Shown here: piece after piece, positions 13,292 through 64,000 of the stretch | Numbering within the stretch: position 1 is the first letter of the stretch | Layout of the letters: each line of letters starts with the position of its first letter | Assembly: GCA_036834125.1 (NCBI GenBank) | Contig: DAITOK010000001.1 | Coordinates: 57,314-121,313, forward strand | Direction of reading: 5' to 3' | Origin: Chloroflexota bacterium | GTDB taxonomy: Bacteria; Chloroflexota; Dehalococcoidia; GIF9; AB-539-J10 | DNA: 64,000 bases | Made by a program: the position numbers and the translations under genes | The notes under the pieces: model-generated | What the model was told of the DNA's origin: nothing | Database searches by the model: none | What the model saw: only the letters and a program-made list of their open reading frames with translations

Positions 13292-13363
13292 AGCGGGTGA
13301 TGGGATTCGAACCCACGACGTCTTGCTTGGGAAGCAAGCACTCTACCGCTGAGTTACACCCGC
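13292..13363 (-). tRNA. tRNA-Gly (anticodon CCC)
   Basis: A 72-nt cloverleaf: acceptor GCGGGTG/CACCCGC, anticodon loop TTCCCAA, T loop GGTTCGAATCC. Confidence 0.85.
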
Positions 13364-13414
13364 AGCCACTATATTATCAATTACAATGGGCACCGATGTC
13401 AAGAATGGATTCTA

Positions 13415-14650
13415 CTATGGTGGTATGAGTGTCAACAGCCTTCTGGCAATTTTGGGATATTTGGCAATAAATAGCAATTCATCCTCGACCAGTGGTTTTT
13501 GCGCTTCGACATTAGCGTATCTTACTAATTCTAGGATTTCTTCAGCTTCCTTAGCGTCTTTAAACTTTATCTCCATCCGTCCCATTATATGGCTGAAGCC
13601 AGATACTCCACCGTATTCTCCGGAACATATCTCGCGGCCAGTCTCGACAAGCTCGGGTTCGCCTCTGCCCAATTCGTCGTAACTGTATAGTTCGTAGTTA
13701 TGGGGATCTTTCAGTACACCATCGGCATGGATACCGGAGCTATGAGCAAAAGCATTAGCGCCGACGCCAGGCTGGTTTATGGGAATAGGCACCTTGAAAG
13801 CATAGCTAGCAAATTTGCAGATCTTCCAAGCCTTTGTCAGGTTTATGGGCATGCCGAGCTGGTATTTCCCTGCGAAGCCTTTGGATTTGGTGACAGCGAG
13901 GACCGTAGCTACAAGGTCGGCATTGCCAGCTCGTTCGCCGATTCCGTTGACTGTAGTATTGATGTAAGCATCTTGTCCACCGTCTATAGCTCCTTTGGCT
14001 CCAGCTATAGAATTAGCCACTGCCATACCTAGGTCACCATGACAATGGAGCTCAATAGGCATTGCTACATGTTTGGCTATTGTTTTTACAGTCTCGTAAA
14101 TAGTAAAGGGGTTGTCATATCCTAGAGTATCGCAATACCTGAACCGGTCAGCACCATGTTCTTTAGCGGCTGAGGCAAATTGAATTAGAAAATCTATATC
14201 AGTTCGGGAGGCATCTTCAGCGTTTACGCCTATACTTTCAGCTCCATGAGCGCGGGCAGCATCCACTGCCTCGGTCATCATCTTTATAATATCCTCTCGC
14301 GTTTTCTTGCCCAGAAATTTTCCCCGGATCATTTGGTCCGATGTAGAAATAGAGAGATTAAGATGCTTGAGGTTGGGAACATACTCGAAAGCCTTTTCCA
14401 CGTCTTCGGTAACTGCTCTTAGCCACCCTCCTAAGCGGATGGGTTTGAGAACTCCCATCTCAGCTAATTCCAGATTTGCCTGTAGATAAAAAGATTCGTG
14501 TCTGGTTGTGGGGAAGCCAAATTCTGACTGGAAGACACCCATTTCGTTTAGGTAGAGATTAATCATGGTCTTTTCCAGCTTGGATAGACCAAGACGTGCA
14601 GTTTGGACGCCATCACGATTAGTAACATCTATGAAATAAAGCTTGCTCAT
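13415..14650 (-). CDS. HMGL-like 2-isopropylmalate/homocitrate/citramalate synthase family enzyme (Re-citrate synthase candidate)
   Basis: FIDVTNRDGVQ (the DRE-TIM metallolyase N-terminal motif) and LHCHGDLGMAVANSIAGAKGAIDGGQ (the HxH metal site). The ORF is open to GTG 14665; ATG 14650 gives MSKLYF. Confidence 0.75.
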   Translation of the reverse strand: MSKLYFIDVTNRDGVQTARLGLSKLEKTMINLYLNEMGVFQSEFGFPTTRHESFYLQANLELAEMGVLKPIRLGGWLRAVTEDVEKAFEYVPNLKHLNLSISTSDQMIRGKFLGKKTREDIIKMMTEAVDAARAHGAESIGVNAEDASRTDIDFLIQFASAAKEHGADRFRYCDTLGYDNPFTIYETVKTIAKHVAMPIELHCHGDLGMAVANSIAGAKGAIDGGQDAYINTTVNGIGERAGNADLVATVLAVTKSKGFAGKYQLGMPINLTKAWKICKFASYAFKVPIPINQPGVGANAFAHSSGIHADGVLKDPHNYELYSYDELGRGEPELVETGREICSGEYGGVSGFSHIMGRMEIKFKDAKEAEEILELVRYANVEAQKPLVEDELLFIAKYPKIARRLLTLIPP

Positions 14651-44328: not shown

Positions 44329-44802
44329 TTAAGCATTGGTTCTGGGAGAGAATATGTACACGGTTGCTGTTTTGAGCTTCCGTCTTAGCAAGGCTAATTG
44401 TGGCTTATATAACCTAATTCTTCTTTCTTGGCATACGACAGGCATGTTAAGCATTATTGATATTATTTTCTCCTCTGCGTTTCCTCCGCATATTACGGTT
44501 GCTTCGTTTTGATTTGCTCCCAGCTCTATAAGAATTGGCAACGGCAACGCCTCTTGTTCTTCCGGCTCTAATAGGCTTGCTAAATATTGAAGCTCACTTC
44601 TCTTGAAGAAATGGGTGCTGCCATCATTACATAACACATAGGGATATTGTTCGTTCAATAGAGTTGATAACCGTTTTTGGCTCTGAGGCACCCCAGCATT
44701 TACAACCCTGAGCTCACCTCTTAGGCATTCTTGGAGCATCTTTTCGCAGAGAGATTGTCCCGATTGTGTCTGTGAAGGCTCGTTTTCTAATGGCTTGGGC
44801 AT
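44329..44802 (-). CDS. Hypothetical 157-aa protein co-transcribed at the 3' end of the A-ATPase operon (possibly DUF61/UPF0216-like)
   Basis: It starts 4 nt after the subunit D stop. The suggested resemblance to the archaeal UPF0216 family rests only on the pattern ...LL.EQYPYVL.NDGS.HFFKRSEL.YLASLL, recalled from memory and not verified. Confidence 0.45.
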   Translation of the reverse strand: MPKPLENEPSQTQSGQSLCEKMLQECLRGELRVVNAGVPQSQKRLSTLLNEQYPYVLCNDGSTHFFKRSELQYLASLLEPEEQEALPLPILIELGANQNEATVICGGNAEEKIISIMLNMPVVCQERRIRLYKPQLALLRRKLKTATVYIFSPRTNA

Positions 44803-44806
44803 TGTT

Positions 44807-45442
44807 TTATCCGCGGACGACCAGCACTTTAACGCGTTTCAGCCGTGCTTTCTCTTCTCTATCTCTTTCCTCAAATTTCATATTCAAGTAATTTATCGTC
44901 GCTTGTAACCCTGGGATTATTATATACTCCAGAGCGTTGGTTATCCTTTTCGTCCTATTTATTTCCATAGCTAGTAATTCAAAGTTCCTCTGAAGCTCAG
45001 CCAATTCTACAATGGCTCTCAGACATTCCCCAGATAGCTGCGCAGCATGGTCTAGCCAAGAGGATGTATCAACCGGGTTATACCTTTTCATCCCGCCTTT
45101 GTTGGGACTATCTTGGAGTTCCAAGGATGGTACTCGTACACCGGCTATGCTTCTTGAGCCAGCGGTAATTTTTAGCTCACTCTCAGTAGCTATCAGTTCC
45201 TTGTCCAGTGCTATGTAGCCGTGATATCCAGAGGCAACTGAAAGTGCTTTATAAAGGTTGGAAAATTCGTCCAGCAATTTTCTTTTAGCTTCCACTGTTT
45301 CTCTAGCTGTTTGCAGGAATTCCATAGTCAATATGGAAAGCCTGTCTTTTACGATTTTTTGTATTCTTCGTGCTAGCGAAAGTCGGCGTTTTAGTTTTAT
45401 CAGCTCGATCTTTGTTGGCCTGACTTTGATCAATTCTGGCAT
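44807..45442 (-). CDS. atpD: A/V-type ATP synthase subunit D
   Basis: A coiled-coil protein; MPELIKVRPTKIELIKLKRRL. Confidence 0.8.
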   Translation of the reverse strand: MPELIKVRPTKIELIKLKRRLSLARRIQKIVKDRLSILTMEFLQTARETVEAKRKLLDEFSNLYKALSVASGYHGYIALDKELIATESELKITAGSRSIAGVRVPSLELQDSPNKGGMKRYNPVDTSSWLDHAAQLSGECLRAIVELAELQRNFELLAMEINRTKRITNALEYIIIPGLQATINYLNMKFEERDREEKARLKRVKVLVVRG

Positions 45443-45453
45443 TTTCTTTGCAT

Positions 45454-46857
45454 CTACTGCGCCTTGCGATACTTGGGATGATACTTTTTGATGAACTCTT
45501 CTCTAATTAGCTTCAAATCTTCTTCTGGTAATCTGGAGAATAGCTCCCAGGCTATAGCTAAGGTCTGTTCTACCGTTCTTTTCTCCCATTCGCCTTGAGA
45601 TATGAATCTCCTCTCAAATTCCTCAGCGTTGGTCAAATATATTCTGTCCCTGTCACTCAGTGCCTCAGTACCTATAATGGTAGATATTTCCCGGAGATAA
45701 CACCCTTCAGCGTAAGCAGCATAAGATTGCATAAAAACGTTGTTGTGGTCTTCTCTGGTTTTGCCAGGACCAATCCCTTCTCGCATCATTCGGGAGAGGG
45801 ATAGAAATACGTCTATAGGGGGGTATATACCTTTCCTTTCCAAGTTTCGGGAAAGAACAATCTGCCCCTCGGTTATATAGCCAGTTAGGTCAGGTATGGG
45901 ATGTGTTATATCATCGTCTGGCATGGTCAAAATAGGCATTACAGTTACAGACCCCTCTTTACCAAAAATTCTGCCAGCTCTTTCGTACATTGTAGCGAGG
46001 TCAGTGTACATATAACCGGGATATCCTCTTCGGGATGGTATCTCTTCACGCATGGAAGAAAGTTCGCGGAGAGCTTCACAATAGTTGGTCATATCGGTAA
46101 GAATGACGAGGACGTGCATGTTCTGTTTCCAGGCTAGATATTCGGCTGCGGTTAAAGCTAATCTGGGCGTTGATATTCGCTCAATAACCGGGTCCGATGC
46201 AGTGTTGATGAAAGCCACAGTTCTCTCTAATGCACCTGTCCTCTCCAGGCTCTTCATAAAAAAGGAGGCATCATCATAGCTGATACCAATAGCAGCAAAT
46301 ACCAGAGCAAATCTTTCCTGTTTTCCCTTTACAGTTGCCTGTCTGATGATTTGAGCGGCAATTCGGTTATGAGGCAACCCTGAGCCACTGAATATGGGCA
46401 ACTTTTGTCCCCTGACCAGCGCATTCAAGCCGTCTATTGCCGAGATTCCTGTTTCAATAAATTCGGCAGGTGGCTGACGAAGTGCAGGGTTTATAGGTTC
46501 ACCGTTAATATCCAGGTAATCTTCGGGAATTACTGGCGGACCTCCATCTATTGGCTCTCCCAGACCATTGAATATCCTTCCTAGGACATCAATAGACACT
46601 GGCAACTTCAAGGTTTCGCCTTTGCATCTTATCTTGCTTCCGATAAGATCCACTTCACTGACGCCACCGAATACTTCGATTATGGTGGCTTCCGCACTGA
46701 TGTCTATGGCTTGGCCGCTTTTTATCTCGCCGTTGGCAAGTTGAACCTCAACCATCTCATTAAATTTTATGCCGGGTATGCTCTCAGCTACCAGCAGAGC
46801 CCCTTTAGCCTTGCTAATTGCTTTTCCTTCTTTAACATAAAGTGAGGATAAGTCCAT
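45454..46857 (-). CDS. atpB: A/V-type ATP synthase subunit B (non-catalytic)
   Basis: A 467-aa protein with a degenerate P-loop region and an [13 protein letters not shown] motif. Confidence 0.85.
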
Positions 46858-46967
46858 AATAGCCTCCTTTTATGAAAACCTGATTACCACCCCGATTAAA
46901 TTGGTAAAAGCTATCTTTTATCTTGGTCTTTAAGAATTTTAGCTTTGACATTGTTCGGGGTTTGTAT

Positions 46968-48713
46968 TTAGCGCTTAGGACTCACCATAATGCGTTCCAT
47001 CTCAGCCCACAATTCCTTAACTTTTTGTTCAAATACATCGTTGGGTATCTCTTTTATCCTGGATATTCTATAGACTATTGGTGATGAACGGATGCTCTCA
47101 ATGCTTGCCCCAGAATTTAGCATTTCTTGAGCTAGCTCGTAGAATTTCAGGATAGTTTTGAGCATGAGTCCGGCTTTCGCTGGCACGCAATAAGTATCAA
47201 CTTCGTGATAGGCACTTTGCTGGAGAAAGTCTTCGCGAATCATCCGGGCAATAAGAAGCAGTAATTTGTCTCTGTCAGGTAGAGCTTCGGGTCCTACGAG
47301 TCTGACAATTTCTTGTAGCTCTGCCTCCTGCTGCAAGATTTTCAAGGCGTTAGCTCTGGTATTCTCCCATCCCGGGTCATGTTTATTCCACCAATTTTTA
47401 ACAGCATCCACATAAAGGCTATAGCTGGTAAGCCAGTTTATGGCTGGGAAATGTCTCTTGTTCGCTAGCGAGACATCCAGAGCATAGAAAGCATCTATTA
47501 TCCTGAGCGTGTTTTGTGTTACCGGTTCACTGAAGTCAGCTCCCGGTGGGCTTACGGCGCCGGCTACCGTTACTGAGCCCTTTCTTTGTGGATTACCTAA
47601 ACATTCCACCATCCCGGCTCTTTCGTAGAAAGACGAAAGCCGAGAACCCATGTAGGAAGGAAAACCTTCCTCTCCAGGCATCTCTTCCAATCTCCCGCTC
47701 ATCTCCCTCATGGCTTCTGCCCATCGTGAAGTAGAATCAGCAACTACCAAAACGTTGTAACCCATGTCCCGGAAATACTCAGCCATGGTGATGCCGACAA
47801 ATATGCTTGCTTCCCTGGCCACCACAGGCATATTAGAAGTGTTAGCTATAAAGATTTCTTTCTCTTGTAGCAATCTTCCAGTGTTGGGATCCTTGAGTTC
47901 TCTAAAGCTATAAAGCACATCAGCCATCTCATTGCCCCGTTCGCCGCAACCAACGTAGATGTTCAGGTGTGTTTGAGCCCACCTAGCTAGCTGTTGCAAA
48001 GCTACGGTCTTCCCGGTGCCAAAGCCTCCGGGTATTGAGGCCTTGCCTCCAAGAGCCAAGGGGAACATATAATCCAAAATTCGCATGCCAGTAGTAAGCA
48101 GACCGGCCGGGTCAAACCTTTGCTTGTAAGGTCGGGGTTTCCTTACTGGCCACTTCTGCATCATCGTGAGTTCTTTTACTTCGCCATTATGCTCTACTAA
48201 AGCTATAGGCTCCTCGACAGTGTAATTGCCTTGTCGTATCTCTTTTATCCTGCCCTTGACTCCCGCTGGCACCATTATCCGATGCTCTATAAGGTGGGTT
48301 TCGGGTACTACGCCTATTATGTCCCCATGGCTAACAACGTCCCCGACTTTCACTTTGGGTACAAACTGCCATTTCTTGTTGCGAGGGAGAGCCAAGGCTT
48401 TGGCGCCTCGCTTTATAAATGGGCCAATATTCTCGCCTAGGGTGAGTAAAGATTTTTGTAGCCCATCGTAAATAGAACCTACAAGCCCAGGTCCGAGCTC
48501 GACACTCAGTACTTGTTCTGTTCTTCTCACAATCTCCCCAACTTTCAGCCCTTGAGTATCTTCGTGTGCCTGAATTATCGCCTTGTTGCCTTCCAGTCCT
48601 ACTATCTCCCCTACAAGTCCCTCTTCACCTATCTCGACAACTTCATAAACCTGGGACCCCAGCATGTCGTCAGCGATAACCAGAGGGCCGGAAACTCTCC
48701 ATATTTTGCCCAT
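46968..48713 (-). CDS. atpA: A/V-type ATP synthase catalytic subunit A
   Basis: A 581-aa protein with Walker A GGFGTGKTV and no intein. Confidence 0.85.
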   Translation of the reverse strand: MGKIWRVSGPLVIADDMLGSQVYEVVEIGEEGLVGEIVGLEGNKAIIQAHEDTQGLKVGEIVRRTEQVLSVELGPGLVGSIYDGLQKSLLTLGENIGPFIKRGAKALALPRNKKWQFVPKVKVGDVVSHGDIIGVVPETHLIEHRIMVPAGVKGRIKEIRQGNYTVEEPIALVEHNGEVKELTMMQKWPVRKPRPYKQRFDPAGLLTTGMRILDYMFPLALGGKASIPGGFGTGKTVALQQLARWAQTHLNIYVGCGERGNEMADVLYSFRELKDPNTGRLLQEKEIFIANTSNMPVVAREASIFVGITMAEYFRDMGYNVLVVADSTSRWAEAMREMSGRLEEMPGEEGFPSYMGSRLSSFYERAGMVECLGNPQRKGSVTVAGAVSPPGADFSEPVTQNTLRIIDAFYALDVSLANKRHFPAINWLTSYSLYVDAVKNWWNKHDPGWENTRANALKILQQEAELQEIVRLVGPEALPDRDKLLLLIARMIREDFLQQSAYHEVDTYCVPAKAGLMLKTILKFYELAQEMLNSGASIESIRSSPIVYRISRIKEIPNDVFEQKVKELWAEMERIMVSPKR

Positions 48714-48762
48714 GTCTTTATCCTCCTATCTTAAAAAACATTACGTGCTTTCATCATGATTT

Positions 48763-49116
48763 TCAAATTTCCACTTCAAATCCAATGGATTCTCGGATAA
48801 GCCTTCTGTAGTATTTTCTGACATCTGGATATTTTGTGCCAGACTTGGACGGAACCTCTACAATTATCGGAGTTATCCCTTTTCTTTTCCTGACCGCGTT
48901 CATGAGGTCTTCAACATACTGGGCATAATCTTCTGACATGATCACTATGCCCACATCGGGTTCGCCTAACAGCTCGGTCATGACTCTCCTGACATCGTCA
49001 CGGATGTCATGACCGCTTTTTATGGTGTAATATTTACTGATGCCGGCTAGCCTTAGTGCGTTGACTAGTTCTTCATCTCCTATTACAGCTATATCTAGGC
49101 GTTTAATGGGTATCAT
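48763..49116 (-). CDS. atpF: A/V-type ATP synthase subunit F
   Basis: A 117-aa protein starting IAVIGDEELVNALRLAGI. Confidence 0.75.
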   Translation of the reverse strand: MIPIKRLDIAVIGDEELVNALRLAGISKYYTIKSGHDIRDDVRRVMTELLGEPDVGIVIMSEDYAQYVEDLMNAVRKRKGITPIIVEVPSKSGTKYPDVRKYYRRLIRESIGFEVEI

Positions 49117-49117
49117 G

Positions 49118-50152
49118 TCACAATACCAAAAAGTTCTTTACTTCTTGGACGGGAACTCCATCCATGATGGCTTTTAGAATCAGCCTCAAGTTGCGTATTT
49201 CGACCTCTTTGAGAACTAAATACCAAGCCATCACCAGTGGGGACAACACTTTTGGTGACAGCAATTCCTTGAGCATCCTGAACTTATGCTTATCAATGAC
49301 TTCATCTACTACTGTGATGCTTCTAGTCTTATCATAGTTTGCTGATACTTCATTTGCTATGTCCCGATATTGGCTATCTTCCAACTTCGCAGGTACGTCA
49401 GCGATTTTGAGGTTGATCAAATCTTTAATACTTTTGTCTGTAAGCCTATAGCCGCCGGCGATAGTCATTTCAGCAACATCGGGTCCTATGCCCTCAATTA
49501 TCGCCCTTAGGACAATTTGCAGGTTTGTTAGGTCTATCACTAAGCCGAAGGCTTTGGCCAACACAAAGCCGTCTTTTATTTTTCTAGCCATGTTTAGCAT
49601 GCTTTTATAATACTCGCTAGCCAGCTTGACTTCGGTAAGAAATTTCACCTTTGCACTTTTGCCTGCTTTGTATTCCTCAATAGCAGGTGTATAATCTCCT
49701 AGTTTGCACCTGACGAGTATTTGGGCGATATCGTATATATTTTCGGCTTTGGAGAGTTCGTCTAGCAGTCCGTGGTTGTAAATAACACCGACCGGTATCA
49801 TACGGGCTTTCTTGCCAGTTGCCATGTTTTGTAGGGCAGCTTTAATATTTGTGACGTCGTACTTCACCATGTATGCTCTAGATAGTTTTAGTATGTCTTT
49901 GGGCAAGAATTTAAATGATTCTACATAGTTAATACGTTGCCTGAGATAACGCCACAACGATTCATCCAGTTCATCAAAAGTTTTGACAGGTAATTCCTCT
50001 AGGAAGCTTCCAATATAGGTTTCTCTGATAACTGCCAGCGCATCCTGAAAGGTGGATGCTGATGCCATCCTATCTATGTGTTCGAGGGTGACAGTTCTGG
50101 GTTCTTCCCCTTTCAAGCAAGCAGATATAAAAGCGTATCTTGGGTTGAGCAC
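49118..50152 (-). CDS. atpC: A/V-type ATP synthase subunit C (d)
   Basis: 344 aa, at the expected operon position between E and F. Confidence 0.7.
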   Translation of the reverse strand: MLNPRYAFISACLKGEEPRTVTLEHIDRMASASTFQDALAVIRETYIGSFLEELPVKTFDELDESLWRYLRQRINYVESFKFLPKDILKLSRAYMVKYDVTNIKAALQNMATGKKARMIPVGVIYNHGLLDELSKAENIYDIAQILVRCKLGDYTPAIEEYKAGKSAKVKFLTEVKLASEYYKSMLNMARKIKDGFVLAKAFGLVIDLTNLQIVLRAIIEGIGPDVAEMTIAGGYRLTDKSIKDLINLKIADVPAKLEDSQYRDIANEVSANYDKTRSITVVDEVIDKHKFRMLKELLSPKVLSPLVMAWYLVLKEVEIRNLRLILKAIMDGVPVQEVKNFLVL

Positions 50153-50161
50153 AACATTACC

Positions 50162-50743
50162 TTACTGAGCCTCAAAAAGTTTCTTACTAATGTCTGGCAG
50201 CAATTTGGGTAACAAGGTTTCCAGTCTGGTCTCGTAGGTGTTATCTATTCTGAGCTTTCCCTCGACGTCTTCGACCACCGCCCCTCCCAGGCAATTGGAT
50301 TCCCTGACCTCCACCACCTTTGCGGACAATTCTCTATCCTCTGCAATGAGCTTTTTTGCCGTGTTTAGATCTTTCGGGGAAACATAGACTCTGGCTTTAC
50401 TCACGCCCAGAGCATTCAAACCCTCTTTGATCAAATTTGCAAGCTGATTTTCGTCAGTGGTAACTTGTGACAAATCCTTGCGCGCTCCGTCAATTATCTT
50501 GGCAATTGCCGCTGCCTTGGCACTTGATAGCTGTTGTCGCGCTTGGATAGAAGCTTGAGCCAAAATTCGAGATGCTTCCTCTTCTGCTTCTTTGACCATT
50601 CTACTGCGCTCTTCCGCGAACCTTGCCTCTCTCTGTCTCTTGGCTTTCTCTTTTTCCTCTCGTGTCTTCTCTTCTGCTTCTTCTATGATGCTCTGGGCTT
50701 CTGCTCTTACTTTATTCAAAACAGCTTGGCTTATTCTTTCCAT
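50162..50743 (-). CDS. atpE: A/V-type ATP synthase subunit E
   Basis: 193 aa, with a charged coiled-coil N-terminus. Confidence 0.75.
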   Translation of the reverse strand: MERISQAVLNKVRAEAQSIIEEAEEKTREEKEKAKRQREARFAEERSRMVKEAEEEASRILAQASIQARQQLSSAKAAAIAKIIDGARKDLSQVTTDENQLANLIKEGLNALGVSKARVYVSPKDLNTAKKLIAEDRELSAKVVEVRESNCLGGAVVEDVEGKLRIDNTYETRLETLLPKLLPDISKKLFEAQ

Positions 50744-50756
50744 TTTCAGTATGCTC

Positions 50757-51218
50757 CTAGAAAAGTCCCAGCAAAACCAACACCAGCACGGTGAACACTA
50801 TACCAAGTATACCCCATAGTTCCACAAGCACAGCTAATATCATGGTCGTCGTTAGTAATTTCCCTTTCGTTTTGGGCAAAAGAGAGATGCCTGAAGCACA
50901 AATGATGCCCTGATAGGCTGCCGAGAAACCCTCAGCCGCTGCCACGAAGATACCGCAACCCAGCACAGCTAGCCCGTCACCCATGCTAGCAACCTTGGGC
51001 AATACCTGGATGATGATAAGTATGAGAATTATGAGCCCGTAGAAGGTCTGTGTCATAGGCAAAGACGATAGGAGAATAACGTTTCTAAACTGTCCTGGCT
51101 CCTCTGCCAGTGTGCCAGCCCCTGCTGATGCTGCCATGCCGACGCCTATGGCAGAGCCAGCCATACCACCAGCCAATCCTATGGCTCCACCAAGAATTGC
51201 TAACGCTGTTGGCTCCAT
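50757..51218 (-). CDS. atpK: A/V-type ATP synthase proteolipid subunit K: 16-kDa, four-helix (duplicated hairpin) c subunit with an NtpK-like Na+-binding signature
   Basis: Hairpin 1, helix 2 reads SLPMTQTFYG (Q, not E/D, at the carboxylate position). Helix 3 has AAYQGII, and hairpin 2, helix 4 has AVLVELWGILG (E present). Confidence 0.8.
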   Translation of the reverse strand: MEPTALAILGGAIGLAGGMAGSAIGVGMAASAGAGTLAEEPGQFRNVILLSSLPMTQTFYGLIILILIIIQVLPKVASMGDGLAVLGCGIFVAAAEGFSAAYQGIICASGISLLPKTKGKLLTTTMILAVLVELWGILGIVFTVLVLVLLGLF

Positions 51219-51236
51219 ACTATTTCACACTCCTTT

Positions 51237-53270
51237 CTAAGATTTTACTTTGACAAACACAGGTCGAGTCTTCAACCGGAACGGACTGTATTCCCTGCCG
51301 CCACCTTCGTAAAATTTCAGGAGGAATTCCACAAAGCACAGCCTGAGAGAGTGAACAAAGCAAGAGATGCCGCTGAGAGCGGCATTGATTATGTGCCCAA
51401 TTAGCACAATCAGTGCCGCCAGCATTGGACCTGTTACTTCGCGAATTGCCTCCGGCATCAAATCGGGCAATATTTTAGACATCAGGTTGAAGGAGAAGGC
51501 AAGGTAATAGGTAGCTAAACCCACCCCTGCCAACCGACAGTATGACATAACATCTCCTAAGATGCCTGTTACTTCGGACAACGAGAAAATTCCTCCTAGG
51601 AGAAAACCGTTCATCTTCAGATAGGAGGCAATAATTAAGATTAAGCCGGCACCGGCAGTACATAACAGCGGGATGGGATATGCTTGCTCTGGTAATATGG
51701 AAATATCTACATGAAGGAGATAGTGTATGACCAAGGGTATTGCACCAATTTCAAGCAGGAACAGACCGAGTTTACTTACCACTGTTCCTTTACTGCCTGC
51801 TTTCGCTCCCTTAATGAGCGTCAATATGTGTGCTATGTTCACGTGAATCAAGCCTATCAATATTGAGATGACTATAAATTGAATAGGATTTCCCAGTAGT
51901 GATTCAATCCGACTAGCAAGGGCTAAGCTTTCGATCCCAAAACGCTGGAAGAACTTCCCGAAATAACTGCCTTGGACGAAATTGCCGAAATAGCTGCCTG
52001 TGAGCAAGCCAAAAATAAGCCCAACCACGCCACTGATGTAGAGCATTCTTTGGAATAGTTTAAATCCTTCGGTTTCGGGGTCATCAACGAATTTCTTCAA
52101 ACCGCGATTAGCAAATAGCAGCAGTATGGCCGAATAGGCTACATCGTTCATCATAAGTCCGAAAAAGAACGGGAAAGAATAAGATATGAGAGGCGTAGGG
52201 TCCCACTCCCAATACCTCGGGATGCCGAACAGCTTTACCACGACCTGGAATGGTCGGAAGGCACGGAAATTCCTAAATTTGGTGGGAGGCTCTTCAACCG
52301 CTTGCGGTTTCTGAGTATCAGTGAACACGTAATTCACCTTTTCTTTAACTTCGGAAATCGTATCCTCAACATTAGCCTCGGGAATCCAACCTTCGATTAG
52401 CGTAACATATTTCGCTTCACTAGCTTTGGCTAAAACTGCTAGCCGTTCTGTTTCGGCAGATAACGCCTCACGGAAAAGAACTAGTGTCTTCAGGTTCTCT
52501 CTAGTCCTGTTTTCAATCTCGCTCTGAAGTTTTGCCAGTTCTTCTTCAAAACTGCGAATATTACTGCTAGCTGTTTCGAGGAATTCTCTCAGAGTTACAT
52601 CCTTTTCTGGTATCTGCAAGGCTCTGCCTCCACCATCCCTGACTATGGACTCTATTTTTTCTCGGTCGTGAACTTTGGCAATAACATACAAAACGCTCTC
52701 GTTTTCTACTGTTACCACAATGTGCTCAAGTAGATGCTCTCTAAATTTAGGGTAAATGGTTTCAAATGACTCACGGGGAAATACAAAAACGTGAGAAAAT
52801 AGGTAATCTCCGGAAAAACTCAAATCTCTTAGTCTAATATCAGCAATGTCAGCTTGTTGCCTAAGAGGGTGAAGATATGTGCTTAGTTCTGTAAGTTTCT
52901 TGCTATTCTCTCTCAGTTTGACAGCTATTTGATGCATTTTGCTGAGCTTGGTGCACAGTACTCTCACTTCGCTATCAATTTCATCGAGAGGTTTAGCATA
53001 TACCACTTCAACATCCTGTCCCAAGGAAATTATTTTTTCCCCTTTAGGGACGTAAGCTAATACATCGTTAATGCTGGCTAGTAATTCAGCAACCCTTTTT
53101 CTTTCCTGTTCAAGGGCTTCTTTCTCAACAGGTTTTAATTCCTGGCTTTCCTCAACGTGAAGCACACCCGCAGTGTGCAGAGTTTTTAGAGTTTCAGCGG
53201 AGCGATCCTTGGCGACCATTATCCTGACTTTGACCATAGGGTCGGGTGTGTTGATGATCAAGGGTACCAT
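51237..53270 (-). CDS. atpI: A/V-type ATP synthase subunit I (a)
   Basis: A 677-aa protein with a cytoplasmic N-terminal half and a multi-TM C-terminal half. Confidence 0.8.
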   Translation of the reverse strand: MVPLIINTPDPMVKVRIMVAKDRSAETLKTLHTAGVLHVEESQELKPVEKEALEQERKRVAELLASINDVLAYVPKGEKIISLGQDVEVVYAKPLDEIDSEVRVLCTKLSKMHQIAVKLRENSKKLTELSTYLHPLRQQADIADIRLRDLSFSGDYLFSHVFVFPRESFETIYPKFREHLLEHIVVTVENESVLYVIAKVHDREKIESIVRDGGGRALQIPEKDVTLREFLETASSNIRSFEEELAKLQSEIENRTRENLKTLVLFREALSAETERLAVLAKASEAKYVTLIEGWIPEANVEDTISEVKEKVNYVFTDTQKPQAVEEPPTKFRNFRAFRPFQVVVKLFGIPRYWEWDPTPLISYSFPFFFGLMMNDVAYSAILLLFANRGLKKFVDDPETEGFKLFQRMLYISGVVGLIFGLLTGSYFGNFVQGSYFGKFFQRFGIESLALASRIESLLGNPIQFIVISILIGLIHVNIAHILTLIKGAKAGSKGTVVSKLGLFLLEIGAIPLVIHYLLHVDISILPEQAYPIPLLCTAGAGLILIIASYLKMNGFLLGGIFSLSEVTGILGDVMSYCRLAGVGLATYYLAFSFNLMSKILPDLMPEAIREVTGPMLAALIVLIGHIINAALSGISCFVHSLRLCFVEFLLKFYEGGGREYSPFRLKTRPVFVKVKS

Positions 53271-57615: not shown

Positions 57616-58719
57616 ATGAACGCGGGTCAAAAAAGCCAGGTTTTCTTTTTCCCTTACGACAGGGGTAGAGCTTTCGTCAAGGGGTTGAGGTCTCTTTTTT
57701 CCAGAGTGAGCGATGTTATCTCCGAGGGAGATTCAGTGGCGGTGAAGGTTCATATGGGAGAATATGGGGGCAGTGCCTACTTGCGTCCGCCCATAGTCCG
57801 TCGGGTCTGTGACCTGATTAAGGAAGCTGGCGGCAAGCCGTTTGTCACTGATACGACTACTCTGTATCCGGTAGGAAGGTTCACAGCCAGGCAATATCTG
57901 AAGACAGCAGCCTCCAATGGCTTCACCAGACAATCAGTGGGGGCACCGATAGTTATCGCCGATGGGCAAGATGGCTATGATGGCGAATGGGTGGATATTC
58001 CCCGCCGAGTTTCCGGGTGCTCTTTGGATAGGGTGAAGATAGCTGACGGGATTTACAATACCGATTGTATGATAGTCCTGTCTCATATTAAGGGTCATCC
58101 GCTATCTGGCTTTGGTGGCTCTATCAAGAATGTAGCTATGGGCTGTGTGACCAAAGAGTCGAAAGCCGCTCAACACCGGGCGAATCGGGTTCTCATCGCT
58201 ACCGCAAAATGTACGGGCTGCGGACAGTGTGTTGAAGCCTGTCCTTTTAAAGCCTTGTCTCTAGTTGATGAGAAAGTTGTGCGTGATGATAGCAAATGCA
58301 TGGATTGCAGTAATTGTCTTTACTTGTGTAAGGAACGTGTCTATTCCCTGCCTTCCGATGCACAGGAGAAGTTCCAAGTGTACCTGGCTCACGCTGGCGC
58401 TGGCGTGCTCAGGCAATTTGGGTCTAAAGTGGCTTTTATCAATTTTATCCAGGATGTCACGCCACTATGTGACTGCGCCATACCGTCCGGTTTACCAGTG
58501 ATTCCAGATATTGGGATACTGGCGTCCACAGACATGGTAGCTGTTGACAAGGCATCGTGGGATTTGATTTCCCAAAGTCAGCCCATTGGAAAATTTGCCA
58601 ACATACGCTCTCCTGACATCTTGGGCGCGATAAATGGCACGGACAGCCTCATCCATATTAGAACTGCAGAGCAGCTTGGATTGGGCAGCATGGAGTATGA
58701 GCTGAAAGAGCAGAAATGA
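57616..58719 (+). CDS. DUF362 domain protein with an inserted 2x[4Fe-4S] ferredoxin domain
   Basis: CTGCGQCVEACP and CMDCSNCLYLC, with the DUF362-like flanks VAVKVHMGE and IKGH. A strong AAAGGAGG RBS precedes it. Confidence 0.6.
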   Translation: MNAGQKSQVFFFPYDRGRAFVKGLRSLFSRVSDVISEGDSVAVKVHMGEYGGSAYLRPPIVRRVCDLIKEAGGKPFVTDTTTLYPVGRFTARQYLKTAASNGFTRQSVGAPIVIADGQDGYDGEWVDIPRRVSGCSLDRVKIADGIYNTDCMIVLSHIKGHPLSGFGGSIKNVAMGCVTKESKAAQHRANRVLIATAKCTGCGQCVEACPFKALSLVDEKVVRDDSKCMDCSNCLYLCKERVYSLPSDAQEKFQVYLAHAGAGVLRQFGSKVAFINFIQDVTPLCDCAIPSGLPVIPDIGILASTDMVAVDKASWDLISQSQPIGKFANIRSPDILGAINGTDSLIHIRTAEQLGLGSMEYELKEQK

Positions 58720-58818
58720 AAATGCGAAACGCCAAGGTGAAATTCAAAGGCGAATCAAGGGTCGCCAGGGAGAAGCTATCTATTATTTCCCCACGCCGTA
58801 GGACATTATAGGAGTAAG

Positions 58819-59262
58819 ATGGAAGACATTGATCTGGCTCGCTCTCTTCTGGAAGAAGAGAAATGCAACTTGGTTATAGTGAAGAAAGGGGATATCCTTT
58901 TCAGCTCTAAAGAACGAGGGATAGCGTCCTTTATTCAGGCTATTCAGCGTTTGGGCAAAGGTTTACATAATGCTGCGATGGCTGACAGGATTGTGGGCTT
59001 AGCTGTAGCCATGCTTTGTATCCATGCTCGGATAGCCTCGGTATATGCCAACATAGGTAGTCAGGAAGCACTGGACTTGCTGAAAGGGCGAGGAGTAGCG
59101 GTTAGTAGCCAGCATGTGGTTCCTCATATTTTCAACTACGATGGCACTGACTTATGCCCTTTTGAAAAGATAGCGAAAAGTTCGGAAAACTCAGCTCAAT
59201 TATTTTCCACCTTGAAATCCATGTTCGGAGGTCTAGATGGTAATAGAGAGGCATTCACATAG
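58819..59262 (+). CDS. DUF1893 (TM1506-like) domain protein
   Basis: The 147-aa ORF shows the pattern LVIVKKGDILFSSKERGIASF...VGLAVAMLCIH; the assignment is from recalled family features. Confidence 0.45.
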   Translation: MEDIDLARSLLEEEKCNLVIVKKGDILFSSKERGIASFIQAIQRLGKGLHNAAMADRIVGLAVAMLCIHARIASVYANIGSQEALDLLKGRGVAVSSQHVVPHIFNYDGTDLCPFEKIAKSSENSAQLFSTLKSMFGGLDGNREAFT

Positions 59263-61608: not shown

Positions 61609-61799
61609 ATTTCAGCTATTGTGAATCCGAGAGGCAGCACTTAGCTGCCCACATCCGCCCAACCAGAAGCGCTCGAAACTGTGTATTGATAGCGGAATAT
61701 TCCTATTTTCGACTTGTCGCCAACACATGAGGGAAAGAGCTGCGAACATATGGCGCGTGGTCTAGAGTGATATAATGGTGAATGATGGAACGGGAGGCG

Positions 61800-62798
61800 A
61801 TGCTCTATGAGACACTTCCCGGTGGCAGGGTGAGGTGTCATGTTTGCCAGTGGCGGTGTCTGATCAACTCCGGCAAGGTTGGCGTTTGTCGTATGCGAAT
61901 CAATCGGGAGGGAAAGCTGTTCAGTTTGAATTATGGCGAAGTGTCCTCCATGGCGCCTGACCATATTGAGAAAAAGCCGCTGTTTCATTTCTTTCCAGCT
62001 ACTTATGCCTTCTCCTTAGGCACTTGGGGTTGCAATTTTCATTGCCGAGGGTGTCAGAATTGGGAGATTTCCTGCGTGGATATACCGCGCCGCGGTTCAC
62101 GCCAATTGCTCCCAGAGGAACAAGTAAAACTAACTGTAGAATACGATTGCCAGGGCATTGCCTGGACTTACAACGAGCCCACCATCTGGTTTGAGTACAC
62201 TCTGGATTCAGCGAAGCTGGCGAAGAAGAACAATCTATATACGGTGTACGTGACCAATGGCTATGCCACTCCCGAGGCTCTGGATGCCATAGGACCGTGG
62301 CTGGATGCCTGGAGGGTAGACATCAAAGGTTTCAGCGATGCTTTCTATAAGGAGATAGCCAAAATTTCTCACTGGCGAGGTATTCTGGATGTTGCCAGGC
62401 GAGCGAAAGAGAAATGGAACATGCACGTTGAAGTGGTCACCAACATCATTCCCACTCTGAATGATGACGACGAGCAACTTACAGGTATAGCTGCGTGGAT
62501 TCGCGATAACCTGGGAGAACTTACTCCCTGGCACGTCACGCGTTTTCATCCTCTGCACGAGTTTACGCATCTGTCAGTTACGCCGCTGTCTACCCTGGAG
62601 AAAGCTTACAGAATTGGGAAAAGAGCCGGGCTGAAATTTGTCTATCTGGGCAACGTGCCCGGGCATGAATATGAAAATACGGTCTGCTATTCGTGCGGCA
62701 AAAAGGTTGTCCGTCGCATTGGCTATGATACTCAAATAGTGGGTCTAGACGGTGCAAAGTGCAAATTCTGTGGAGCTGAGCTTAATTTTCGGGTCTGA
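61800..62798 (+). CDS. AmmeMemoRadiSam system radical SAM enzyme (PFL-activase-like)
   Basis: An N-terminal Cys-rich CHVCQWRC...GVCRMR region, a radical [14 protein letters not shown] motif, and a C-terminal CYSCGKKV...CKFCG. GGGAGG lies 4 nt before ATG 61800. Confidence 0.7.
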
Positions 62799-62809
62799 GG
62801 AGGCGATTT

Positions 62810-63328
62810 ATGGCAGAAAAGAGGCTACATCCGGTAGTACAACTGGCTAAACAGACTGTGGAGAGCTACGTCCGCGAGGGCAAGATACCGAAGCCCAAAG
62901 AATTGACTCCGGAGATGAAGGAACGGGCAGGCGTGTTTGTCTCCATTCATAAGCACGGACAACTAAGGGGATGTATCGGCACCTTCGAGCCAGCCAGGGA
63001 GAATGTAGCTGAAGAAATCATCGCCAATGCTATCTGCTCGGCTACTCAGGATCCTCGTTTTCCCCCGGTGACTGCTTCTGAGCTCGATGATTTGGAATAT
63101 AATGTAGACATACTTACTAAACCTGAACCTGTTACAGATATCAGCCAGCTTGACCCTAAAAAGTATGGCGTCATCGTGGAGAGCGGCTGGAGAAGAGGAC
63201 TTTTATTACCTGACCTGGAGGGCGTGGACAGCGTGGAAGAGCAGATTGCAATTTGTCGGCTCAAAGCTGGCATATCCCCCAGCGAGCCCATCAAGCTCTA
63301 TCGCTTTCAGGTGCGGAGGTTTAAGTAA
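62810..63328 (+). CDS. AMMECR1 domain protein (AmmeMemoRadiSam system protein A)
   Basis: [19 protein letters not shown] is the AMMECR1 signature; it lies 11 nt after the radical SAM gene. Confidence 0.7.
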
Positions 63329-64000
63329 TGGTTAGGCAGAAGACGATGCCGCTTTTCGACCTACCTGAGGAACAAGCTGTGCCTCAGGCTGCACCTCTAG
63401 CGGCGAGGATGCGACCGCGCATATTTGACGAGTTCGTGGGGCAAGAGCACTTAGTTGCTAGAGGACGGGTCTTTCGCAAATGTATTGAGGCTGACCAGTT
63501 GCCCTCCATGATTTTTTGGGGACCACCAGGCAGTGGCAAGACCACTCTGGCTTATCTTATCGCCAATGTTACCCAAGCCGAGTTCAGTCCTCTGAGCGCC
63601 GTGAGTGCTGGCGTGGCAGATTTGCGCCGCGTTGTCAGGGAGGCTAAGAAGAGGCTTAAATCCACAGGGCAAAGAACCATTCTCTTTGTTGACGAAGTGC
63701 ACCGCTTTAACAAAGCACAGCAGGATGCTGTCCTTCCCTTCGTCGAAGATGGCACAATCACCTTTATCGGAGCTACCACAGAAAATCCTTCCTTCGAAGT
63801 TATCTCGCCACTGCTTTCCCGCTGCCGTGTATTCCGCTTGAATTTACTCAGTGACGAAGAGGTCAGGCTTATTGTGGAAAGGGCTATTAGGGATCGGGAG
63901 AGAGGACTGGGGAAATTGCAGCTCAAGATAAGCGAGGAAGCTCTGCGTCACCTTGTGACCATGTCCAACGGGGATGCCCGGGTGACGTTGAACGCCCTGG
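63328..64000 (+). CDS. rarA: Replication-associated recombination protein A (AAA+ ATPase RarA/MgsA), 3' partial at the window end
   Basis: Walker A GPPGSGKTT, Walker B ILFVDEVHRF and sensor 1 GATTENP. The ORF runs off the window end and has no stop, so it is absent from the ORF track. Confidence 0.75.
   Translation, partial: MVRQKTMPLFDLPEEQAVPQAAPLAARMRPRIFDEFVGQEHLVARGRVFRKCIEADQLPSMIFWGPPGSGKTTLAYLIANVTQAEFSPLSAVSAGVADLRRVVREAKKRLKSTGQRTILFVDEVHRFNKAQQDAVLPFVEDGTITFIGATTENPSFEVISPLLSRCRVFRLNLLSDEEVRLIVERAIRDRERGLGKLQLKISEEALRHLVTMSNGDARVTLNAL

Follow-up and report, generated by a model that had tools for sequence, protein, structure and literature searches.

Two of the three components of the AmmeMemoRadiSam system, a radical S-adenosylmethionine (SAM) enzyme and the AMMECR1-domain protein A, lie side by side near the end of a 64,000-nucleotide (nt) stretch of a Chloroflexota genome (assembly GCA_036834125.1, contig DAITOK010000001.1, positions 57,314 to 121,313 of the forward strand; here, the window). 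The host, an uncultured Dehalococcoidia bacterium, is probably anaerobic. We consider it likely that the two proteins are a true AmmeMemoRadiSam radical SAM enzyme and protein A from whose locus the third component, the Memo-like or LigB-like protein B, was deleted, and that the pair has been kept by selection. Standard annotation already yields these gene calls; what is mildly new is a derived, B-deleted locus that is stable across a Dehalococcoidia clade and has sister fusions of the radical SAM enzyme directly to AMMECR1.

Conservation of AMMECR1 and Memo extends from archaea to humans, and the AMME contiguous-gene-deletion region includes AMMECR1. We know of no biochemical function for AMMECR1, for Memo, or for their prokaryotic radical SAM partner. 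The cleft cysteine of an RGCIG/RGChG motif, together with a DxRa motif, has been proposed as the active site of AMMECR1, which is persistently associated with a radical SAM enzyme and a dioxygenase-like protein and was predicted to act in nucleic-acid (RNA) base modification (Balaji & Aravind 2007, PMC2034487). In 2019 AMMECR1 was listed as a top-priority uncharacterised archaeal family (PMC6393860), and our literature search found no paper characterising the AmmeMemoRadiSam system.

The locus contains the following features, with residues numbered within each protein.

61782..62798, + strand: radical SAM enzyme of the AmmeMemoRadiSam system, 338 amino acids (TIGR04337, PF04055)
61836..61889, + strand: N-terminal four-cysteine motif C19-x2-C22-x3-C26-x9-C36, each cysteine at least 99% conserved in 83 family members
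62031..62054, + strand: radical SAM core C84-x3-C88-x2-C91 (CNFHCRGC), the [4Fe-4S]/SAM site, 100% conserved in 83 sequences and inside the PF04055 match
62685..62771, + strand: C-terminal motif C302-x2-C305 ... C327-x2-C330, zinc-ribbon-like in its presumed role, 98-100% conserved in 83 sequences
62797..62809, + strand: spacer with a Shine-Dalgarno-like GAGGAGG, read directly from the sequence
62810..63328, + strand: AmmeMemoRadiSam protein A (AMMECR1 domain), 172 amino acids (TIGR04335, PF01871)
62966..62980, + strand: RGCIG motif R53-G57 with the invariant cleft cysteine C55, present in 14/14 aligned AMMECR1 domains
63050..63061, + strand: DPRF motif D81-F84, the second AMMECR1 motif (DxRa), present in 14/14 aligned domains
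63328..64000, + strand: rarA/mgsA, an AAA+ recombination-associated ATPase, partial since the window ends inside the gene

The radical SAM enzyme scores 284.8 bits against TIGR04337 (curated cut-off 220; E = 7.5e-85), matching profile positions 4-329 of 349, and carries a PF04055 match with E = 2.4e-18. Its neighbour scores 151.7 bits against TIGR04335 (cut-off 99; E = 1.3e-44) and 178.8 bits against PF01871 (E = 8.4e-53). A prediction made earlier from the letters of this DNA alone (the original prediction) had proposed just this TIGRFAM check, and both proteins exceed the curated cut-offs. It had also described an N-terminal cysteine-rich extension and a radical SAM core, and both are there, as C19/C22/C26/C36 and as C84NFHC88RGC91QNW. 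The C-terminal motif, with its CX2C-x21-CX2C spacing, was absent from that account. Judged by its sequence, the window protein is a canonical member of the AmmeMemoRadiSam family, because all eleven cysteines of the three motifs are present in it and are 98-100% conserved across the 83 family members, bacterial and archaeal, that we aligned. The N-terminal four-cysteine motif would be a metal or auxiliary-cluster site, its ligand being putative. The closest database proteins are 73-87% identical to the window enzyme, and NCBI names the closest homologues 'AmmeMemoRadiSam system radical SAM enzyme [Dehalococcoidia bacterium]'.

JGI names homologues of the same enzyme 'pyruvate formate lyase activating enzyme' (PFL-AE), and the only solved relatives found by sequence are the PFL-AE structures 3C8F and 8FO0 (E ~4e-5). 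The models for activases of glycyl radical enzymes reject that assignment: TIGR02493 gave 39.1 bits (cut-off 231.75) and TIGR02494 36.2 (cut-off 174.35), and all activase models other than TIGR02493 gave 24-43 bits against cut-offs of 131-500. A generic PFL activase, the outcome that the original prediction had set against its own assignment, was thus not what these models returned.

The second protein begins exactly at the start of the AMMECR1 domain, and no N-terminal B domain or remnant precedes it. Its cleft motif reads LRGCIGT in full (R53-T58), and its solved homologues are the structural-genomics entries 1ZQ7, 1VAJ, and 1WSC. As had been predicted, this RGCIGT-bearing open reading frame (ORF) directly follows the radical SAM gene on the same strand. 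The radical SAM gene ends in a TGA stop codon at 62796-62798, and 11 nt (62799-62809) separate it from the AMMECR1 start, with the Shine-Dalgarno-like GAGGAGG (62797-62803) overlapping the stop. A terminator scan found none between the two genes, and Rfam, promoter, and terminator scans of 61.0-64.0 kb returned nothing exceeding background. The pair is tightly coupled: only 11 nt separate the genes, no terminator intervenes, and partners are naturally fused in both directions. The start of the radical SAM gene had been placed at 61800, an in-frame ATG that some homologues use; it is the third such codon of the ORF, after 61782 and 61785.

We next asked whether protein B is encoded nearby. Flanking sequence came from contigs carrying the exact window proteins (JGI Ga0116210_1000256 and Ga0116210_1000825, and a 158-kb ENA contig), so that, with 8.8 kb downstream and 8 kb upstream of the 64-kb window, ~82 kb were inspected. 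The Pfam tables for window positions ~10-64 kb and both flanks contained neither PF01875 (Memo) nor PF02900 (LigB), and the remaining ORFs and unannotated hypothetical proteins, scanned directly with Pfam, had no Memo or LigB domain. A phmmer search of six-frame pieces of the window and loci with human MEMO1, a query identical in sequence to PDB 7KQ8 and a very distant seed, gave no match. A profile iterated on the Memo/LigB-like domains of Chloroflexota reached a best E value of 2 against all six-frame pieces of at least 25 residues. Hence no B gene or remnant lies within ~82 kb around the pair, and B was likewise not found at the orthologous loci of relatives in the window's clade. The same tables list no glycyl radical enzyme, whether PFL-like or carrying a Gly_radical domain, around the pair. 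The original prediction was therefore right that no Memo gene adjoins the two genes; its phrase 'partial system' holds for the locus (~82 kb).

Using the B domains of two relatives (loci L011 and L014; handles beginning with L or P are our own) as seeds, protein searches returned, among the matches listed, no stand-alone B on long contigs of the window's clade. With the first seed the matches listed were dominated by fused proteins of at least 82% identity. With the second, the stand-alone B proteins all came from other lineages, where they were flanked by the radical SAM gene and AMMECR1.

To place the locus among its relatives, we scanned GTDB species-representative genomes with the radical SAM alignment, which gave 80 loci (40-85% identity, flanks up to 10 kb), and scored partners with iterated hidden Markov models for the AMMECR1 and Memo/LigB-like domains. 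The loci divide as follows, the second count being restricted to loci whose flanks reach at least 5 kb each way.

Neither partner near the radical SAM gene: 69/80 loci; 29/34
A and B near the radical SAM gene: 7/80 loci; 4/34
A only near the radical SAM gene: 3/80 loci; 1/34
B only near the radical SAM gene: 1/80 loci; 0/34

Dispersal of the three genes is thus the norm of the family, because most loci have neither partner in the fetched flanks, and a Memo gene that is not adjacent is in itself unremarkable. The loci with adjacent partners are all from Chloroflexota except L054 and L069. Clustering of the neighbourhoods of 83 loci found no family recurring by the radical SAM gene across phyla, the largest occurring in at most 7 loci. 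Among the loci with partners, and those of closer relatives, we found these architectures.

Radical SAM gene, then fused Memo-AMMECR1: L011, L015
Radical SAM gene, then fused LigB-like-AMMECR1: L013, L014, L016
Triple radical SAM-LigB-like-AMMECR1 fusion, 833 amino acids: L018
Three separate genes, Memo-type B: L089
Three separate genes, LigB-like B: L094-L098
Radical SAM gene and stand-alone AMMECR1, no B: window, L002/L003, L009, L010, L012, L092, L093
Direct radical SAM-AMMECR1 fusion, no B: P0075, P0077, P0078, P0107/L004, P0111

The survey of related genomes suggested in the original prediction is informative at this closer range: close Chloroflexota relatives carry B at the same locus, whereas the window's clade does not. 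The direct fusions fall in the same clade as the window, and one of them, P0107, exceeds the cut-offs of both TIGR04337 and TIGR04335. B-bearing and B-less loci share landmarks, with a divergent CoaE gene upstream and rarA downstream, and PhoU_div/PHO4, a CetZ-like tubulin gene, and a TIG-domain gene occur near both kinds alike. L097 reads CoaE / radical SAM - B - AMMECR1 - CetZ-like - rarA, and the window has the same frame minus B. Relatives at 73-87% identity keep the B-less block in the same syntenic setting.

B itself is of two kinds. Memo-type B proteins score 329-334 bits on TIGR04336 and the LigB-like type 33 bits (cut-off 26). Among close Chloroflexota relatives B has been swapped or has strongly diverged, and the radical SAM enzyme and AMMECR1 are conserved. 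As a separate observation, the LigB-like B of L013, L014, L016, L018, and L094-L098 matches HpaD_Fe better than TIGR04336, and true Memo occurs in L011, L015, and L089. In L018 (9974-12472; uncultured Chloroflexia, CAWIGJ010000002.1) a single ORF holds all three system components.

Neighbour-joining trees recover the window's B-less clade as monophyletic, within a wider set of B-bearing Chloroflexota lineages, at bootstrap values of 85-91 for the radical SAM enzyme and 99 for AMMECR1; L016 and L018 form deeper Chloroflexota branches. We conclude that the window arrangement is derived, B having been deleted once from the locus in the window's clade and the pair kept. B-less L012 groups away from this clade and probably lost B separately, in a second event. 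The ancestral Chloroflexota locus would have read CoaE / radical SAM - B - AMMECR1 - (CetZ-like) - rarA, with B, either a true Memo or a LigB-like protein of the class III dioxygenase fold, often fused to AMMECR1.

Within the B-less clade the ratio of nonsynonymous to synonymous substitutions (dN/dS) is 0.035-0.109 for both genes where dS is measurable (dS 0.9-2.7), all catalytic motifs are intact, and so are the reading frames in every member examined. Both genes are thus under strong purifying selection, and the locus, with B deleted, is stably inherited and maintained across the Dehalococcoidia clade. Taken together, the ~850-bp deletion of B, purifying selection on the pair, and the fusions point to the radical SAM enzyme and AMMECR1 as a minimal interacting unit. 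The original prediction held that split arrangements help define which components are obligatory. Lack of adjacency alone says little about this, given how widely the genes are dispersed; the clade-wide derived deletion does add local information, and the B-less pair is a modest clue that the two proteins form a working core.

Several points weigh against the reading that a true AmmeMemoRadiSam pair lost B from its locus and was kept. The ~82 kb seen belong to a genome that is probably 1.5-2.5 Mb in size. Dispersal being the norm in other phyla favours a B gene elsewhere, and such a gene is entirely plausible, given that the genes are dispersed in most of them. The backbone of the neighbour-joining trees is weak (bootstrap 3-44 for sister relationships), and because of this the polarity of the change, as a loss, rests on parsimony and synteny. 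Co-transcription of the radical SAM gene, AMMECR1, and rarA, although likely, is read from gene spacing alone.

The strongest competitor holds that the system is complete, with B encoded elsewhere in the genome and the locus a split arrangement without functional meaning. The predominance of dispersed loci among the species-representative genomes and the limited extent of the inspected sequence speak for it, as do the definitions of TIGR04335-04337, which we take to rest on the co-occurrence of all three proteins. On the other side, all Chloroflexota B genes examined (7 GTDB loci, L089, and L094-L098) sit at the radical SAM/AMMECR1 locus and none elsewhere, the radical SAM enzyme is repeatedly fused directly to AMMECR1 in the B-less clade, and B is interchangeable in close relatives (Memo versus LigB-like), which suggests that it is the least constrained part. 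We give this explanation a substantial chance, somewhat short of even. Because every Chloroflexota B gene examined lies at the locus, and because the window's clade evolved direct radical SAM-AMMECR1 fusions, we lean slightly towards a genome that truly lacks B.

A different polarity would make the radical SAM enzyme and AMMECR1 without B the ancestral state in Chloroflexota, with B gained later in other lineages. The low backbone bootstrap leaves the rooting inside Dehalococcoidia insecure, which favours such a history, but B is at the locus in L018 and L016, which branch deepest within Chloroflexota, and also in the Omnitrophota outgroup L069. In several lineages B is found in one and the same place, with the radical SAM gene on one side and AMMECR1 on the other, and multiple gains would be required against one or two losses. 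We regard gain as unlikely. Even less probable is that the pair is a decaying remnant, non-working since B was lost from the locus: that loss is what would suggest it, yet dN/dS of 0.04-0.10, with dS saturated across the clade, the intact catalytic motifs, and the intact frames of the clade members examined speak firmly against decay. Least credible of all is an ordinary PFL-AE-type activase of a glycyl radical enzyme beside a coincidental AMMECR1 neighbour, for which the JGI names, the solved PFL-AE relatives, and weak activase-model matches can be cited, against scores far under the activase cut-offs, the lack of an annotated glycyl radical enzyme in ~82 kb, and the conserved adjacency and fusions of the two genes.

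Returning to the preferred reading, a true pair with B deleted from its locus, the comparison with known systems sharpens what is distinctive. The canonical three-gene system (TIGR04337, protein B of TIGR04336, and protein A of TIGR04335; for example, L089 and L097) has a radical SAM enzyme and protein A orthologous to those of the window, with the same cysteine motifs, RGCIG and DPRF, CoaE upstream and rarA downstream, and scores that pass the curated cut-offs. It differs in that B (~268 amino acids, ~850 bp with spacers) lies between the genes, where the window has a gap of 11 nt. In the Memo- or LigB-like-AMMECR1 fusions of Dehalococcoidia (435-445 amino acids; 'protein B/protein A' in NCBI and JGI), the AMMECR1 domain aligns end to end with the window protein, keeps RGCIG and DPRF, and is preceded by a radical SAM gene, but these fusions carry an N-terminal B domain that the window protein lacks. 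PflA (PDB 3C8F) and other activases, whose structures are the closest solved ones by sequence, have the same radical SAM core, with CX3CX2C near the N terminus of the barrel; the window enzyme adds the N- and C-terminal four-cysteine motifs and has an AMMECR1 partner and no glycyl radical enzyme. To our knowledge, eukaryotes keep AMMECR1 and MEMO1 (A and B) without the radical SAM enzyme. Theirs is also a partial set around AMMECR1, whereas the window's clade keeps the radical SAM enzyme and A, with no B at the locus.

How such a pair might work can be sketched. The PFL-activase-like enzyme would cleave SAM reductively at its CX3CX2C [4Fe-4S] cluster, yielding a 5'-deoxyadenosyl radical, and may act in a direct physical complex with AMMECR1. 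Hydrogen could then be abstracted from a substrate held in the AMMECR1 cleft beside the invariant RGCIG cysteine, or AMMECR1 itself could be the target of the radical SAM enzyme. The metal-dependent step of B would be dispensable in the window's clade or supplied in trans. Radical, oxygen-sensitive chemistry of this kind would fit PF01871 being the strongest Pfam marker of anaerobes (PMC13386939).

More tentatively, and with rather less than even confidence, we propose that a Memo-independent two-component radical SAM-AMMECR1 system, fused in some members, extends across the whole Dehalococcoidia clade, with AMMECR1 as direct partner or substrate and B as an accessory, replaceable component. 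If this were true, the clade would be a natural knockout that picks out the smallest core of a system whose conservation spans archaea to humans. The practical value lies in the choice of experimental material, as the finding alone does not reveal the chemistry; the natural fusions, at 516-536 amino acids, offer small constructs for anaerobic biochemistry and structure work.

Downstream of the pair, rarA starts at 63328 and overlaps the AMMECR1 stop as TAATG. That rarA, and no Memo gene, follows was anticipated in the original prediction, and NCBIfam and Pfam identify the gene as rarA/mgsA: the partial protein scores 308.8 bits on NF009881 and matches PF00004 (AAA) and PF05496 (RuvB_N). The full-length protein, 451 amino acids with MgsA_C, is present on the matching contig L001, and the neighbour is kept in L002, L009, L010, L092, L093, and L097. 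We regard rarA as an operon neighbour of the pair rather than as an established part of the AmmeMemoRadiSam system. In L067 (10990-12234; Desulfohalobiaceae), an AAA+ ORF like the RarA N terminus (E = 5e-36) directly follows the radical SAM gene; in this unrelated phylum it is a second, independent adjacency of the kind, which might reflect chance.

A CetZ_C tubulin-family gene, of the archaeal cell-shape family, lies at or near the locus in L094 (11337-12455), L097 (9664-10770), and L001 (15515-16693, past the window end). In L094 and L097 it sits between AMMECR1 and rarA, with a second copy a few kb off. The CetZ-like tubulins of Dehalococcoidia may merit separate attention.

In L014 (12392-15469; CAYVQT010000034.1, Dehalococcoidia) an insert of ~3 kb separates the LigB-like-AMMECR1 gene from rarA. 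It contains a two-gene pair (13333..13626 and 13613..13882) that resembles, by eye only, an antitoxin and a RelE/ParE-type toxin. A duplicated AMMECR1 3' end (13833..14063), near-identical to the C terminus of the intact gene, follows the pair. The arrangement resembles the trace left by a mobile element that duplicated its target on inserting.

Other neighbours of the radical SAM gene recur more locally. In the Methanomicrobiales archaea L032, L033, and L050, homologues of PhoU_div, PHO4, and/or rarA lie at most 5 kb from it, as in Dehalococcoidia, and this neighbourhood, common to two domains of life, may reflect horizontal transfer of the block. An ORF of ~286 amino acids (cluster c5), a candidate SAM-dependent methyltransferase, lies ~200 bp from the radical SAM gene in L036, L038, L048, L058, L064, and L078 (Desulfobacterota / Phycisphaerae). 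A second radical SAM paralogue (cluster c6), PflX-like by eye only, lies near the first in L040, L045, L066, L071, L078, and L081.

Within the window itself, two genes at 57616-59262 (+ strand), ~2.5 kb before the radical SAM gene, encode a DUF362 protein that carries two 4Fe-4S motifs and, next after it, a TM1506/DUF1893 protein. Both families are uncharacterised, and the two genes are not kept beside the pair in L002 and L004. Further upstream, a complete archaeal/V-type ATPase operon (44329-53270, - strand) encodes subunits I, c, E, C(AC39), F, A, B, and D together with a DUF61 protein.

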